A DNA stretch of 64,000 nt. It comes from Candidatus Zhuqueibacterota bacterium (lineage in GTDB: Bacteria; Zhuqueibacterota; Zhuqueibacteria; Thermofontimicrobiales; Thermofontimicrobiaceae). Where the stretch lies: contig JBMOPW010000016.1 in the NCBI GenBank assembly GCA_049322915.1, positions 39,971 through 103,970 of the forward strand, written 5' to 3'. A program made the position numbers and the translations under genes. Shown one piece after another: positions 60,968 to 64,000 of this stretch. The notes beneath the pieces are model-generated. The model made no database searches and was not told the DNA's origin. It saw only the letters and a program-made list of their open reading frames with translations. Numbering within the stretch: position 1 is the first letter of the stretch; every line of letters begins with the position of its first letter.

Positions 60968-61900
60968 ATGGTACAAACATCAAAAAGATTCCGCAGAGTT
61001 TATCAGAGCTTAACCAATTTTGAACTCCAGAGAACGTCATCCGCCGATAAGCTCATTTCGACGGAAGACATTCTGGGCGATTTGGAGGAAAAGGAACGAC
61101 CCCATTTGTTCCTGAATTTTTACTCGGAATTGGGAATCCAGAAAGCGCTCGAAGAATATGGCATTTTCCACGATTTGAACAAGCGCGGTTTTTTTAATTT
61201 CATCACACGAATCGATGCGCAGGACCCCTATCGGCATACGCTGAAATTGTTCTACGAGAAGGAAGACGTCGACCACCTGCTGGGCGAGTTGTATGTTCGG
61301 AAAAAATATTTCATTGCCAAGCCTGTCTTCCCTTCGGAAATTTCCGGCCAGAAATTTTCCATGATCGTGATAGAATGGCTCACGCTGCAAGACCCCACTG
61401 CGGAGTTCACAACGCGACGTCCCCCGTTGCCGGGACAAATTTTCCCCGGGCTGAGGATCGGGCGAAAAATTGTGGGGATTTTTGTGAATATGGCGCTGCG
61501 GCTCAAGACGGATGGACTGCTCAATATTCCGGACCATTACCACAATGCCGTGTTTTATTCGAAGCATTTCAAATATTTCAATCCGACCACCGAGGGACAG
61601 TTTTTGGCCATGCAGCGTGATTTGCGCATGTTGGGTTTATTCAAAGCCGCCTGGGCTGTGGAATTGAATTGCATTCTCGAAGAAAATTCCAGCAAGCCGT
61701 GGCAGTGGTTCACGGACGAACAGGTCCTGTTTGTGAGCAGAAAAATGGAGAAGTATTTTGAGGCGGATGAATACCAGGATCATGTGGCCGAAGCGTTCGC
61801 TCAATACAAATTCACCATTGATGAGGAGAAGTTCAACCATTTGATCAAAGAGCAGCCATTTTGCGCCATGGTTCCTGAATTGATGGAGCAAATGGCGTAA
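60968..61900 (+). CDS. Hypothetical protein with GNAT-like motif arrangement
   Basis: IEWLTLQDP...RPPLPGQIFPGLRIG...DGLLNIPDHYHNAVFY. Confidence 0.6.
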   Translation: MVQTSKRFRRVYQSLTNFELQRTSSADKLISTEDILGDLEEKERPHLFLNFYSELGIQKALEEYGIFHDLNKRGFFNFITRIDAQDPYRHTLKLFYEKEDVDHLLGELYVRKKYFIAKPVFPSEISGQKFSMIVIEWLTLQDPTAEFTTRRPPLPGQIFPGLRIGRKIVGIFVNMALRLKTDGLLNIPDHYHNAVFYSKHFKYFNPTTEGQFLAMQRDLRMLGLFKAAWAVELNCILEENSSKPWQWFTDEQVLFVSRKMEKYFEADEYQDHVAEAFAQYKFTIDEEKFNHLIKEQPFCAMVPELMEQMA

Positions 61901-62095
61901 CCTGATTTGGGCAGGGAACCGCTCGTGAATCGATCGCTTCGTGAACTGGCAGCGTCTGTTGTGATCATCCAGGCAATGCCCGCAGTCGACGCGATTCGGC
62001 GGCACGAATTAGAACTCGCAGGAAAGACTCCAGCTTCGTTTTTGGTGGAAAGACCAGGTTGTTTTTTCATAGAATTTTATTTCAATAATAAATGC

Positions 62096-62142
62096 AAACA
62101 CCCGAAATCACAATGTTCCTTCGATTTCGGGTGTTTTATTTT
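62096..62142. terminator. Bidirectional terminator
   Basis: AAACACCCGAAATC...GATTTCGGGTGTTT stem followed by TATTTTTT. Confidence 0.78.
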
Positions 62143-62172
62143 TTACCATTGGCGTTGAACAATGTATCAAAA

Positions 62173-63537
62173 TTAATCCACAGGTGGATAATCTTCGATC
62201 ATCTTCAGCGTCTCCTGAATTTGCTTTTCCGGCAATTCGTAGTTCGTCAGTTGGCCATCATTGAATTTATCGTAGGAGCCCATATCAAAATGGCCGTGGC
62301 CGCTGAGGTTGAACAGAATTGTCTTTTTCTGGCCTTCCTTTTTAGCCTTTTCTGCCTCGACGATGGTGGCGCGAATGGCATGCGACGATTCCGGCGCCGG
62401 GAGAATGCCTTCGGTGCGGGCGAAGAGACGAGCCGCTTCAAACACTTCGATCTGTTTGTAGGCGGCAGCTTCGATGTGTTTTTCCCGAACCAGGTGGCTG
62501 ATGAGCGGCGCCATACCATGATAGCGCAAACCGCCGGCATGGATTGGAGGCGGAACAAACTTATGGCCCAGCGTGTACATGGCCATGAGCGGCGTCATTT
62601 CCGCGTTGTCGCCAAAATCATAGGCATACGGTCCGCGAGTCAGCGTGGGACACGATGCCGGCTCCACCGCAATTGCCCGGACTTTCTGCCCTTCGAATTT
62701 ATCTTTGCAGAATGGGAAAACCAATCCCGCAAAATTGCTGCCCCCGCCGACGCATCCGATGATGACATCCGGATAGTCGCCGGCGATTTCCATCTGCTTT
62801 TTCGCTTCAAGTCCCACAATGGTCTGATGCAGCAGCACATGGTTCAGCACGCTTCCCAGCGAGTATTTGGTATCTTCGCGGCTTACCGCTTCTTCCACTG
62901 CTTCGCTTATGGCGATGCCCAGGCTGCCGGGGGAATCCGGATTCTCCGCCAGAATCATGCGACCGGCATTGGTCTCATTGCTGGGACTTGGAATAACCGT
63001 AGCGCCCCACGTCATAATCATGGCGCGGCGATACGGCTTCTGCTGATAGCTGATTTTCACCATGTAAACTTTGCATTCGATCCCAAAGTAATTGCAGGCA
63101 AGGCTCAGCGCGCTGCCCCATTGACCGGCGCCTGTTTCGGTGGTGATGCGTTTCACGCCTTCCATTTTGTTGTAATAGGCCTGAGCCACCGCAGTATTGG
63201 GTTTATGGCTGCCGGCCGGACTGACGCCTTCATATTTATAATAGATTTTTGCCGGCGTATCCAGCGCCTTTTCCAGCCGCCAGGCGCGGTACAGCGGAGA
63301 TGGCCGCCATAATCTATAAATATCCCGCACTTCATCCGGAATGTCGATCCAGCGATCGGTGCTCACTTCCTGCTTGATCAACTCCATCGGAAACAGCGGA
63401 GCCAGGTCGGCCGGCCCCACCGGCTGTTTTGTCCCCGGGTGAAGCACCGGCGGCATGGGCTTTGGTAAATCAGCTTGAATGTTGTACCATTGACGCGGTA
63501 AATCTTTTTCGTGCAATAGGATTTTCGTGTCGCTCAT
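62173..63537 (-). CDS. trpB2: TrpB2-type tryptophan synthase beta (PLP enzyme)
   Basis: [74 protein letters not shown]. Confidence 0.95.
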
Positions 63538-63582
63538 TTTTTTCTCCTTTGGATTAGAAGTAAATATGAATAGACGTGTTTG

Positions 63583-64000
63583 TTATTCATCAAACAAAAA
63601 CGTCGGCTCATGATAAAACCGAATTGATTTATCTTTGATTTGATCGTTGATTCGCTTGTTCAGCCAATGGTTCTTTTGTGCCGCGGAAACATCGAAGCGC
63701 AGCAAGTCCAGTGGCACATTCAATCGAAGCGCCCGCTTTGGCAGAATAATGCGGGTGATTCCGCTGGGAATTCTCATCCCGTGGTCGGTCACCTGCACAA
63801 GTTCTTCTTTGGTAATTTTACGAAACACAATGAGGGCGCTGAATTGAGGGTAATTATTTTTGAGATGCTCCAGATTGGTGTAGCTCACGCGGTCCATGAA
63901 TTGCGAACCGTGATACAAATCGGTAATGCCTTGTAAATCTCTCACGCGTTGAAACAAATCCTCGTGCGCGCGCACAGCAAAGATAGAGGCATCGGCAAAT
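63583..64000 (-). CDS. SbnI/SerK-like (ParB/Srx fold) protein, C-terminal part; frame open to the window edge
   Basis: IPSGITRIILPKRALRLNVPLDLL...W...IRFYHEPTFLFDE resembles, from recall, the SbnI C-terminal pattern PxGxTR...RxLxLxVPLxLL...RxYxExxxL. No in-frame stop up to 64000. Confidence 0.65.
   Translation of the reverse strand, partial: FADASIFAVRAHEDLFQRVRDLQGITDLYHGSQFMDRVSYTNLEHLKNNYPQFSALIVFRKITKEELVQVTDHGMRIPSGITRIILPKRALRLNVPLDLLRFDVSAAQKNHWLNKRINDQIKDKSIRFYHEPTFLFDE

Follow-up and report, generated by a model that had tools for sequence, protein, structure and literature searches.

How the stand-alone tryptophan synthase beta chain TrpB2 obtains its substrate, and what purpose the enzyme serves, are to our knowledge open questions. 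The locus considered here lies at the end of a 64,000-nucleotide stretch of DNA (the window), where trpB2 follows an open reading frame that a preliminary description had likened to the serine kinases SbnI and SerK. Does this neighbor supply TrpB2 with O-phospho-L-serine (OPS)? We consider it probable that the two genes form an indole-salvage operon induced by tryptophan starvation, in which a serine kinase makes OPS and TrpB2 joins OPS to indole. No description of an SbnI/SerK-like kinase paired with TrpB2 was found in the literature searched.

Only the 3' part of the upstream gene lies within the window; the whole gene was analyzed in L002 (G000:C16:101000-115000), a stretch of the same genome that extends past the window end. 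A window coordinate equals the L002 coordinate plus 61029. The genes and their borders are as follows:

60968..61900, plus strand: open reading frame, next after trpB2 and convergent with it
62096..62136, minus strand: hairpin followed by a U-rich stretch, candidate operon terminator
62173..63537, minus strand: trpB2, 454 aa, stand-alone TrpB2-type tryptophan synthase beta chain
63538..63582, minus strand: kinase/trpB2 spacer, 45 nt, holding the trpB2 ribosome-binding site AAAGGAG
63583..63999 (feature to 64000), minus strand: 3' part of the kinase-like ORF, 138 codons, 5' end open
L002 2554..3408, minus strand: whole kinase-like gene, 284 aa, reaching beyond the window end

As the preliminary description had stated, the partial ORF ends 45 nt before the trpB2 start on the same strand. 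Reading of the sequence places AAAGGAG 8 nt 5' of the trpB2 ATG. The kinase-like gene starts with GTG, preceded at 4 nt by AAGGAGG; its 284-aa form is the one found in the database, and most of the 120 homologues listed have this length. Upstream of it lie a leader with an attenuator and a thioredoxin gene, and downstream lies TrpB2. The claim that no terminator separates the two genes also stands: a consensus scan flagged no terminator-like site in the spacer and one weak site (7 pairs, 3 of them G-C) across the last codons of the kinase gene (L002 2593..2574, window 63603..63622), which may be due to chance, since the scan returned 7 sites in total against 4.3 ± 2.2 in shuffled sequences. 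The operon may end at the hairpin 37 nt past the trpB2 stop codon. RNA of positions 62078-62172 (minus strand) folds with -29.6 kcal/mol (z -5.23; none of 200 shuffles was equally stable), and the consensus scan, limited to loops of 8 nt, missed this hairpin, the folded loop of which has 11-13 nt. Being palindromic, the stem could also terminate the convergent plus-strand ORF. This ORF matches no Pfam family above threshold, in agreement with the earlier statement that neither trpA nor another trp gene lies downstream.

The downstream enzyme is a TrpB2 by family score (NF009057, 770.3 bits against a cut-off of 366; TIGR01415, 676.5 bits against 518.85), while the canonical trpB model TIGR00263 gives 155.3 bits, under its cut-off of 392.45. 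Among PDB chains it matches the TrpB2 entries 6hul_B (6.3e-139) and 4qys_B (1.3e-123). The PLP lysine is K112, in the motif GSHK, and Arg338 lies in AGGLRYHG; by manual count R338 aligns with D300 of the TrpB chain 7rnp_A. According to the available text of a preprint (10.64898/2026.03.11.711232), the position of TrpB D300 is occupied by Arg in TrpB2 and contacts the phosphate of phosphoserine. OPS dependence has been reported for other TrpB2 enzymes in work of 2014, as cited in the accessible parts of PMC11917138 and of the same preprint. The AGGLRYHG-type Arg motif is kept in all 49 neighboring trpB2 copies that reach the position. Judged from sequence, this Arg, typical of TrpB2, speaks for OPS as the substrate.

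In the case of the upstream protein, Pfam searches returned no family, either for the partial protein or, at E ≤ 10, for the full one. Among NCBIfam models it matches SbnI (6.6e-18, positions 7-252 of 254) and SerK (1.8e-9, positions 21-243 of 244). The scores, 65 bits for SbnI (NF033589; curated equivalog cut-off 350) and 37.1 bits for SerK (NF053625; cut-off 380), are so far under the cut-offs that we treat the protein as a separate, unnamed subfamily, orthologous to neither. A profile built from 22 homologues retrieves SbnI at 6.7e-21, P. furiosus 1vk1 at 7.4e-7 and SerK 5x0b at 2.1e-4. We compared the AF2 model of the 284-aa protein (pLDDT 83.9, pTM 0.80) with known structures. SbnI and SerK make up the best nine Foldseek entries (E 1.5e-16 to 1.5e-14; TM 0.73-0.79, normalized by target length), followed by ParB/Noc/Srx matches of ~80 columns only, and in VIA-align the nine SbnI/SerK entries reach Z 20.7-21.8 over 225-244 residues, with the runner-up at Z 8.7 (85 residues). 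In the structure alignments the protein is 15-22% identical to SbnI and SerK. The predicted fold has two domains, an N-terminal ParB/Srx-like domain and a SerK/SbnI-specific C-terminal domain, and is matched whole only by SbnI and SerK.

A ParB partition protein or nuclease is ruled out by fold coverage, since ParB-type chains cover the N-terminal part only. Almost every ParB, Noc or KorB chain aligns at model residues ~12-98 alone (70-81 residues, Z 5.8-8.5); 6sdk_B, 8qa8_A and 7bm8_A span to residues 230-282, yet with no more residues aligned. The helix-turn-helix and dimerization domains of ParB are unmatched, and the remainder of the model aligns with the C-terminal domain of SbnI/SerK.

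The C-terminal motifs that the preliminary description had quoted as resembling SbnI do align with it, and the full protein has the N-terminal ParB/Srx-like domain together with an H-E motif and a DGxxR motif, here DGANR. SerK 'pHEq' (E30 by chain-numbering count) aligns with H28-E29, of which E29 does not vary across the 22 homologues. The mutants E30A and E30Q are named in the titles of PDB entries 5x0e, 5x0g, 5x0j and 5x0k; in line with these titles, we take SerK E30 to be the catalytic glutamate. LLDGANR aligns with IDGVHR of SbnI and VDGHHR of SerK; D68, G69, N71 and R72 are invariant in the 22 homologues, with Asn (DGANR) where SbnI and SerK carry His (DGxHR). PSGITR (224-229; P, S, G, T and R invariant) aligns with PAGVTR of SbnI and KTTRH of SerK/PF0380, and we infer that the Thr-Arg motif of this C-terminal domain binds serine.

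The family comprises 405 homologues at E ≤ 1e-3, with 62 columns invariant among 22 diverse ones, and extends to 870 representative clusters. Fusions were surveyed in the 21 proteins of at least 343 aa picked from the 150 representatives listed: a SerA-type 2-hydroxyacid dehydrogenase domain stands at the N-terminus of 16, Prok-JAB occurs in one and ThiS in one. The dehydrogenase fusions suggest a metabolic role for these relatives. A distant subtype of the kinase occurs in one family, without a link to TrpB2.

Conservation of gene order links the two proteins. In 53 of 59 related loci trpB2 lies directly downstream on the same strand; four of the loci without it offer less than 50 nt of room and two offer 4 kb, so the adjacency is conserved in 53 of the 55 loci with room downstream, across several phyla. 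The reverse dependence does not hold. Our phylum sample contains 151 genomes (29 kinase carriers and 122 non-carriers, including the unpublished G178 and G122); TrpB2 is present in 100 of them, and the kinase is absent from 75 of these 100. In one family all 12 genomes have TrpB2, three have trpA and none has the kinase, and at 12 kinase-free trpB2 loci a kinase-like ORF is absent from the 2.5 kb around. In general, a lone TrpB2 does not need the kinase. Cross-tabulation of the same sample finds trpA in 7 of 29 kinase carriers versus 85 of 122 non-carriers. Since trpA is present in 9 of 34 carrier genomes, the kinase-TrpB2 pair is not confined to auxotrophs.

These distributions bear on the reading that the upstream protein is a small-molecule kinase with a different substrate, such as another hydroxy-amino acid, or a different purpose, such as phosphoserine for cysteine or other pathways, with TrpB2 using plain serine. 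The low identity to SbnI and SerK would fit, as would the SerA, ThiS and JAB fusions and the TrpB2-unlinked distant subtype seen elsewhere, and the fact that most TrpB2 genes of the phylum lack the kinase. We nevertheless regard this as unlikely, given the adjacency at the informative loci of several phyla, shared transcription behind a Trp-specific attenuator (see below) and the phosphate-contacting Arg in every neighboring TrpB2 that reaches the position. A serine kinase that feeds TrpB2 remains our preferred reading.

Two observations go beyond the preliminary description: a Trp-leader attenuator and a genome without a detected de novo trp pathway. The elements of the attenuator lie upstream of the kinase-like gene:

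L002 3736..3763, minus strand: promoter-like site TTGACA-16 nt-TATATT, from a consensus scan
L002 3595..3705, minus strand: leader ORF MSKFIVTKLLGFMSTISNWCWWRVPIGVADLLKFDV, 36 codons
L002 3615..3628, minus strand: antiterminator segment UGGUGUGGCGGAUU, inside the leader ORF
L002 3540..3569, minus strand: attenuator terminator, 12-bp stem GACCCACUUUAU/AUAAAGUGGGUU followed by a U-run

The leader encodes W-C-W-W, that is, three Trp codons within four consecutive codons. Of 60 loci, 37 show a run of Trp codons upstream, compared with 0.0265 such runs per 400 nt elsewhere, and in 35 of these 37 a hairpin with a T-run precedes the kinase gene. In 33 of 34 loci, the segment that pairs best with the 5' arm of the terminator lies 15-46 nt past the point where the last Trp-codon window starts, within the leader ORF or just beyond its end. 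Both the terminator and the antiterminator helix covary, alignment column 107 doing so with both of its partners; the antiterminator helix has 95.1% of cells paired and 18 cells changed on both sides (0 of 500 shuffles). At our own locus the antiterminator duplex (-13.5 kcal/mol; z -1.46 against shuffles) competes with a terminator hairpin of -14.9 kcal/mol, and the constrained minimum-energy fold keeps the terminator even with a ribosome on the Trp codons. We retain the attenuator despite this fold because of the comparative evidence, namely partner position and covariation. A genome-wide scan for the leader-attenuator pattern returned our locus and one dubious site only. Rfam Trp_leader (RF00513) scores 19 bits at our locus (E 0.49), short of its gathering score of 41, and an Rfam search of 19 related loci yielded no family above threshold; these loci, mainly of the Zixibacteria and Ignavibacteria type, comprise L063, L069 and 17 of the 20 that have 200 nt or more upstream but lack a Trp-codon run. 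Taken together, these results connect the operon with the supply of tryptophan through a covarying leader attenuator that holds Trp codons. As a Trp leader is still present at 8 of 12 kinase-free trpB2 loci, the attenuator is in the first place a feature of trpB2 and less informative about the kinase alone.

The attenuator also bears on the view that the upstream protein is mainly an SbnI-like regulator that binds DNA or a ligand and controls trpB2. Its best-matching NCBIfam name is 'bifunctional transcriptional regulator/O-phospho-L-serine synthase SbnI', and its N-terminal domain folds like ParB, a fold that occurs in many DNA-binding proteins. However, the operon already possesses a cis-acting attenuator, neither the catalytic Glu nor the DGxxR residues vary, ParB-type chains match the N-terminal 70-100 residues only with no helix-turn-helix part among them, and relatives are fused to SerA-type dehydrogenases. 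A mainly regulatory role is, in our judgment, very unlikely, and we continue to see an enzyme in the upstream protein.

What does the genome provide around this pair? In the assembly, which is 96.3% complete, we found no trpA, no IGPS (trpC), no chorismate-binding enzyme (trpE) and no TrpB above the trpB1 cut-off. As trpA, trpB1, trpC and trpE were not found, the kinase-TrpB2 pair looks like the genome's only route to tryptophan, via indole salvage. Phosphoserine synthesis is less clear-cut. No canonical SerC was found, the serC_1 model giving one weak match. Of the 18 Aminotran_5 matches, 12 were inspected (11 cysteine-desulfurase-like and one AGT-like, the neighbors of which give no hint of function); the other six include a 400-aa ORF on contig C34 (72 bits). 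Across the 34 carrier genomes serC_1 has no match above cut-off and three at E ≤ 1e-24. We treat the absence of SerC as unproven because no more than 4 of 14 control genomes have a match to this model above its cut-off, and an AGT-type transaminase may act in the SerC role. The proposal that the pair works independently of SerA and SerC thus stands in part: the missing canonical SerC speaks for it, the possible AGT-type substitute against.

The same inventory weighs on a reversal of the reaction in vivo, in which phosphoserine and ADP would yield serine and ATP, as proposed for SerBK (DUF1015), and so give TrpB2 local serine. The available text of the GapMind 2026 preprint proposes that DUF1015 proteins, with SbnI-like predicted structures, can replace SerB, but it also describes this direction as thermodynamically unfavorable. 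Moreover, no canonical SerC was found in this genome to make the OPS, and the TrpB2-type Arg favors OPS as the substrate. We hold the reverse direction to be highly improbable. Finally, the two genes might be neighbors as a neutral relic or through faulty annotation, with an upstream ORF that has no function. The missing Pfam family and nothing else speaks for this reading, which has practically no chance of being right: the 405 homologues, the 62 invariant columns, the 870 clusters and the confident predicted fold count against it, and conservation effectively refutes it. Homologue number and invariant columns likewise rule out a chance ORF.

The preferred operon would work as follows. Transcription would start at the sigma-70-like promoter, and the 36-codon Trp leader would be read first. 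When charged tRNA-Trp is scarce, the ribosome would presumably stall at the leader Trp codons; the next leader segment would then pair with the terminator's 5' arm as an antiterminator, and RNA polymerase would read through. When Trp is plentiful, the ribosome would reach the leader stop and cover the antiterminator segment, and the terminator would form. The first read-through product, the 284-aa SbnI/SerK-fold kinase, would convert free L-serine, its presumed substrate, to OPS, with either ATP or ADP as the phosphate donor. The second, TrpB2, would join OPS, its presumed substrate in the source organism, to indole, giving L-tryptophan and phosphate. The indole would come from outside the cell or from Trp breakdown, as trpA, trpB1, trpC and trpE were not found. 

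We suggest more tentatively a wider reading: that this is an undescribed third module in which a free-serine kinase feeds an OPS-dependent PLP enzyme, after SerK-CysK and SbnI-SbnA, and that it is the sole, starvation-induced tryptophan route in many FCB-group bacteria apparently without a trp pathway. If so, these FCB-group cells would depend on indole released by their neighbors, and the kinase would be there because the cells, having no SerC, keep no phosphoserine pool. The two proteins may also act as a physical pair, the invariant, unstructured C-terminal tail IRFYxEPTFxFDE of the kinase being a candidate docking element. A conserved Trp-regulated kinase-TrpB2 operon would offer a testable answer to the source of the TrpB2 substrate in many, mostly uncultured bacteria, and would give a role to a protein family that lacks annotation, with its 405 close homologues and 870 representative clusters. 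It would also indicate that organisms counted as tryptophan auxotrophs from their genomes may live on indole, a point that bears on metabolic models of biofilm, soil and sediment communities. The compact two-gene path from serine and indole analogues to tryptophan analogues could possibly serve biocatalysis.

Among known systems, SbnI (S. aureus and S. pseudintermedius; PDB 5ujd, 5uje and 6nr6) is the best full-length match (profile E 6.7e-21, Z 21.4-21.8). SbnA consumes O-phosphoserine in staphyloferrin B synthesis, and the likeness extends to this partner: in both cases the gene of a free-serine kinase would lie beside a fold-type II PLP enzyme that uses O-phosphoserine, kinase activity and OPS use being predicted for our locus. 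Unlike the staphylococcal pair, ours has TrpB2 as the partner and a Trp attenuator as the control, and lies outside a siderophore (sbn) cluster; the kinase-like protein shares 20-22% identity with SbnI and has DGANR for DGVHR. SerK (TK0378, Thermococcus kodakarensis; PDB 5x0b-5x0k) and PF0380 (P. furiosus; 1vk1) have the same two-domain fold (Z 20.7-21.8). SerK phosphorylates free serine and thereby supplies phosphoserine to a beta-replacement enzyme of cysteine synthesis, according to the accessible text of Makino 2016 (PMC5120207), the available main text of which contains neither 'tryptophan' nor 'TrpB'. Our protein is 15-16% identical to SerK, which is archaeal, ADP-dependent and linked, in the literature available, to cysteine and serine catabolism. 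Compared with known TrpB2 enzymes, the one described here is the sole TrpB of a genome without detected TrpA and is co-transcribed with a candidate substrate source; no paper on such a co-transcribed lone TrpB2 was found in the literature searched. The attenuator, hosted by genomes of KSB1, Gemmatimonadota and Eiseniibacteriota type, resembles enterobacterial trpL (RF00513) in its short Trp-codon ORF and in a terminator and mutually exclusive antiterminator that share one arm. However, while trpL controls a full trp operon, the attenuator described here controls trpB2 alone or the kinase together with trpB2.

The kinase-like gene at the end of the window and trpB2 make up a genuine operon, both conserved and regulated. 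The window spans G000:C16:39971-103970. The kinase-like gene is completed in the adjoining DNA (L002; window coordinate = L002 coordinate + 61029), and the parts of the operon that lie in the window, with the neighbour that converges on it, are the following:

62173..63537, minus strand: trpB2 ORF, 454 codons
63583..63999, minus strand: window part of the kinase-like ORF, 138 codons, 5' end open
60968-61900, plus strand: 310-aa ORF convergent on trpB2, without a Pfam family (best DUF1967, E 0.14)

As the preliminary description had it, the partial ORF lies upstream of trpB2 on the same (minus) strand, separated from it by 45 nt, and AAAGGAG precedes the trpB2 ATG. The accompanying claim that no terminator lies between the genes holds for the spacer itself, where a consensus scan found no terminator-like site. 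One weak site of 7 pairs lies over the final codons of the kinase-like gene and may be chance (7 sites in the whole scan vs 4.3 +/- 2.2 in shuffles). RNA folding places a strong hairpin 3' of trpB2 (-29.6 kcal/mol, z -5.23). The upstream neighbours on the same strand (L002 4130-9466) encode a thioredoxin, a PtsI-like PEP-utilising enzyme (583 aa) and an M1 peptidase (1020 aa), the last with a C-terminal FlgD_ig-like domain that resembles a secretion tail.

Across the window and L002 the full kinase-like ORF is at most 330 codons long. Because 284 residues is the length both of most of the 120 homologues listed and of the database form of the protein (P0002), we place the start at the GTG 4 nt after AAGGAGG. 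No Pfam family matches the protein, even at E 10. The NCBIfam models for SbnI (6.6e-18, positions 7-252 of 254) and archaeal SerK (1.8e-9, positions 21-243 of 244) do, with scores that miss the equivalog cut-offs by far (65 vs 350 bits and 37 vs 380 bits, respectively). Among solved structures a single-sequence search retrieves SbnI (~4e-10) and P. furiosus 1vk1 (0.0024), and a profile of 22 diverse homologues retrieves SbnI at 6.7e-21, 1vk1 at 7.4e-7 and SerK 5x0b at 2.1e-4. An AlphaFold2 model built from the 22-homologue alignment (pLDDT 83.9, pTM 0.80) has exactly the SbnI and SerK structures as its top nine Foldseek entries (E 1.5e-16 to 1.5e-14), followed by ParB, Noc and sulfiredoxin over ~80 columns only; VIA-align gives these nine entries Z 20.7-21.8 over 225-244 aligned residues, with the next row at 8.7. 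The likeness to SbnI and SerK, originally proposed from a partial ORF, thus extends over the full length of the protein, which has the architecture of a free-serine kinase.

The H-E and DGxxR motifs, for which the N-terminal domain was to be checked, are present: H28-E29 and D68-G69-x-N71-R72 are invariant among the 22 homologues. E29 aligns with SerK E30, which by entry titles is mutated in four PDB entries, and the counterparts of DGANR are DGVHR in SbnI and DGHHR in SerK. The C-terminal match to SbnI was also correctly recognized, the P-S-G-x-T-R motif aligning with PAGVTR (SbnI) and KTTRH (SerK). The protein carries the key residues of free-serine kinases. It is nevertheless a separate, unnamed subfamily, distinct from both SbnI and SerK. 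Its tail, P0002 residues 270-284 (window 63586-63630), reads K-x-I-R-F-Y-x-E-P-x-F-x-F-D-E and is invariant in 22/22 homologues; it is modelled at pLDDT < 50 and is a candidate contact element.

The 454-codon ORF is a TrpB2, since it scores above the cut-offs of both TrpB2 models (NF009057, 770.3 bits, cut-off 366; TIGR01415, 676.5 bits, cut-off 518.85) and below that of the canonical trpB model (155.3 bits only, cut-off 392.45). O-phospho-L-serine (OPS) is cited as a substrate of TrpB2 enzymes (Busch et al. 2014, as cited in PMC11917138 and in the reference list of PMC12727527). According to a 2026 preprint (10.64898/2026.03.11.711232), TrpB D300 is replaced in TrpB2 enzymes by an arginine that touches the phosphate of phosphoserine. 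By manual count, D300 of TrpB chain 7rnp_A aligns with R338 of the window TrpB2, in the motif AGGLRYHG; this motif is found in 48 related loci and SGGLRYHG in one more, that is, in all 49 neighbouring trpB2 copies that reach the position.

The preliminary description left it to be established how often kinase-like homologues neighbour trpB2. We surveyed one genome per species with a 22-sequence profile, which yielded 59 loci, and searched these by tblastn with the window TrpB2. A trpB2 64-89% identical to it lies directly downstream on the same strand in 53 loci; four others leave less than 50 nt of room after the kinase-like gene, and two (L068 and L073) lack trpB2 by tblastn despite 4 kb of room, L073 being the most distant kinase-like locus (31% identity). 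Adjacency is therefore kept in 53 of the 55 informative loci. The carriers are labelled as KSB1, Gemmatimonadota, Zixibacteria, Ignavibacteria, Eiseniibacteriota and Calditrichota MAGs, with single Acidimicrobiia and Chlorobiaceae. The gap between the genes, usually 25-150 nt, is ~430-560 nt in two carriers (L017, which has the same coordinates as G170:C174, and G129:C9). Two loci were inspected whole, and in each the pair has no companion genes, being flanked by a divergent and a convergent neighbour.

The regulatory elements lie beyond the window end, between the thioredoxin gene, which has its own terminator, and the kinase-like gene:

L002 3763..3736, minus strand: promoter-like TTGACA-16-TATATT, 11/12 consensus matches
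L002 3705..3595, minus strand: leader ORF, 36 codons, MSKFIVTKLLGFMSTISNWCWWRVPIGVADLLKFDV
L002 3569..3540, minus strand: 12-bp hairpin and T-run, 28 nt past the leader ORF stop

The kinase start is 131 nt beyond the hairpin. Counting as a Trp run any four in-frame codons of which three or more are TGG, we find one in the 400 nt before the kinase-like gene in 37 of 60 upstream stretches (3 of the 60 have < 70 nt of upstream sequence), against a background in the rest of the same loci of 54 runs in 815,398 nt, or 0.0265 per 400 nt. The leader peptides carry WWW to WWWWW, and a hairpin with T-run separates leader stop and kinase-like gene in 35 of the 37. For 34 of these 35 we analysed the antiterminator: in 33 the terminator 5' arm has its best partner 15-46 nt from the start of the final Trp-codon window, on its 3' side. 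This partner is contained in the leader ORF in 31 of them and extends past the leader stop in L053 and L055. In L024 the arm pairs best with the Trp-codon run. The duplex reaches z < -2 vs shuffles in 25/34 loci.

Both helices covary in 33 aligned leader stretches. In the terminator helix 90.0% of cells are paired (shuffles 79.2%; slid registers 30-48%) and both partners are changed in 56; in the antiterminator helix 95.1% are paired (shuffles 89.9%; slid registers 33-62%) and both partners are changed in 18. Neither count of double changes was reached by any of 500 shuffles, but these counts are not probabilities, given that the sequences are relatives and themselves served to define the helices, and the slid-register control is more telling. 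One shared-arm column (A or G) covaries with both partners, pairing with the 3' arm as AU 16, GC 16 and GU 1, and with the leader segment as UA 15, CG 11, UG 5 and other 2.

The arrangement of leader, terminator and antiterminator is conserved. A scan of the 6.25-Mb genome for a Trp run in a short ORF with a terminator returned the leader site and one dubious site only. Some results speak against the attenuator. At the operon itself the Rfam Trp_leader model scores 19 bits vs a gathering score of 41, the constrained minimum-energy fold of the leader retained the terminator, and the antiterminator duplex is modest (-13.5 vs -14.9 kcal/mol, z -1.46). Rfam searches of 19 loci gave no family. Of the 57 loci with 200 nt or more of upstream sequence, 20 lack a Trp run, mostly of Zixibacteria and Ignavibacteria type. 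Pairs of these types (L058, L062-L071) have neither Trp-codon leader nor Rfam match; the upstream stretches of L064, L070 and L071 look alike by eye.

Among 12 kinase-free trpB2 loci of the same phylum (L086-L097), with no kinase-like ORF within 2.5 kb even by an HMM of the N-terminal domain alone, eight keep a Trp-codon leader (WWWW, WSWWWW etc.) 114-172 nt upstream. The attenuator therefore belongs first to trpB2, with the kinase gene placed between them in some lineages; in the phylum, Trp attenuators seem to be a common feature of trpB2. In the phylum sample of 151 genomes, the kinase profile finds 29, trpA 92 and TrpB2 100. The kinase-like gene is absent from 75 of the 100 TrpB2 carriers, and one family has TrpB2 in 12/12 genomes, trpA in 3/12 and the kinase in 0/12. 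TrpB2 does not in general depend on the kinase.

The window's own genome, G000 (96.3% complete, 2.5% contamination), yielded no TrpA, indole-3-glycerol-phosphate synthase or chorismate-binding enzyme and no TrpB above the trpB1 cut-off, its sole good TrpB match being the operon trpB2; the four trp-gene searches found their targets in 14/14 control genomes. It does encode a protein of the tryptophanase / tyrosine phenol-lyase family (457 aa; NF009709, 693 bits, below three equivalog cut-offs):

G000:C3:~90475-91848 (L008 1390-2763), minus strand: tryptophanase / tyrosine phenol-lyase family gene

This protein may make or consume indole, so that Trp breakdown and indole salvage may coexist. TrpA is above cut-off in 9 of the 34 carriers reached through loci and was not found in 25 (completeness not given). 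In the phylum sample trpA occurs in 7/29 kinase carriers vs 85/122 others, or 6/28 vs 84/121 without the unpublished genomes G178 and G122, which is a tendency and not a test because related genomes are not independent. Carriers may lack a phosphoserine pool. Canonical SerC was found neither in G000 nor in 31 of the 34 carriers by a model that does not detect every kind of SerC, and G000 has an AGT-like class V transaminase. The same genome encodes a 736-aa fusion of a NifS/IscS-type cysteine desulfurase (TIGR03402, 502 bits) with SelD (TIGR00476, 405 bits) at L077 1492-3702 (G000:C14:~561044-563254).

A word-indexed search with the kinase-like protein retrieves 405 proteins at E <= 1e-3, none with a functional name; the organisms named are KSB1, Calditrichota, Latescibacteria, Gemmatimonadota, Bacteroidota and 'Candidatus Oleimicrobiaceae'. 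An exhaustive search of representative clusters gives 870 at E <= 1e-3, 496 at 1e-10 and 145 at 1e-30. We scanned for domains the 21 proteins of at least 343 aa out of 150 representatives listed. A 2-hydroxyacid dehydrogenase domain (SerA family) lies N-terminal to the kinase-like part in 16, including six full-length SerA-type fusions of 565-603 aa (P0158, P0209, P0212, P0225, P0238, P0253). According to Makino et al. 2016 (PMC5120207), serK adjoins a 3-phosphoglycerate dehydrogenase homologue in Desulfurococcus. One long relative joins Prok-JAB to the kinase (P0193), another ThiS (P0175), and three showed no further domain. ThiS-type carriers and JAB peptidases act in the CysO/CysM/Mec cysteine route, which uses OPS, and the two fusions hint at a connection with sulfur-carrier, phosphoserine-dependent cysteine synthesis. 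Through the SerA, JAB and ThiS fusions the family is linked to phosphoserine chemistry by evidence that does not involve TrpB2. A more distant subtype (~240 bits to the profile), which the phylum sample shows in four genomes of one genus (G098, G131, G155, G178), does not adjoin TrpB2 and is mostly unassociated with it, three of the four genomes having no TrpB2 at all.

The preliminary reading, in which the kinase supplies OPS for TrpB2, is supported in every computable respect. It knew of no description of the pairing, and no serine kinase-TrpB2 link was found in the literature searched, which was that readable without subscription; in term searches of the text available, 'tryptophan' is unmentioned in Makino et al. 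2016 and in the 2025 PNAS ParB-fold survey, and trpB in GapMind 2026. The operon offers a testable answer to the source of TrpB2's phosphoserine and would recast many apparent Trp auxotrophs as indole users. What is new here is the partner of a known module type, the kinase subfamily and the regulatory setting. In the closest known systems, SbnI-SbnA and SerK-CysK, a free-serine kinase supplies OPS to a fold-type II PLP beta-replacement enzyme; the operon would follow the same logic, but its consumer would be TrpB2 and its switch a Trp attenuator.
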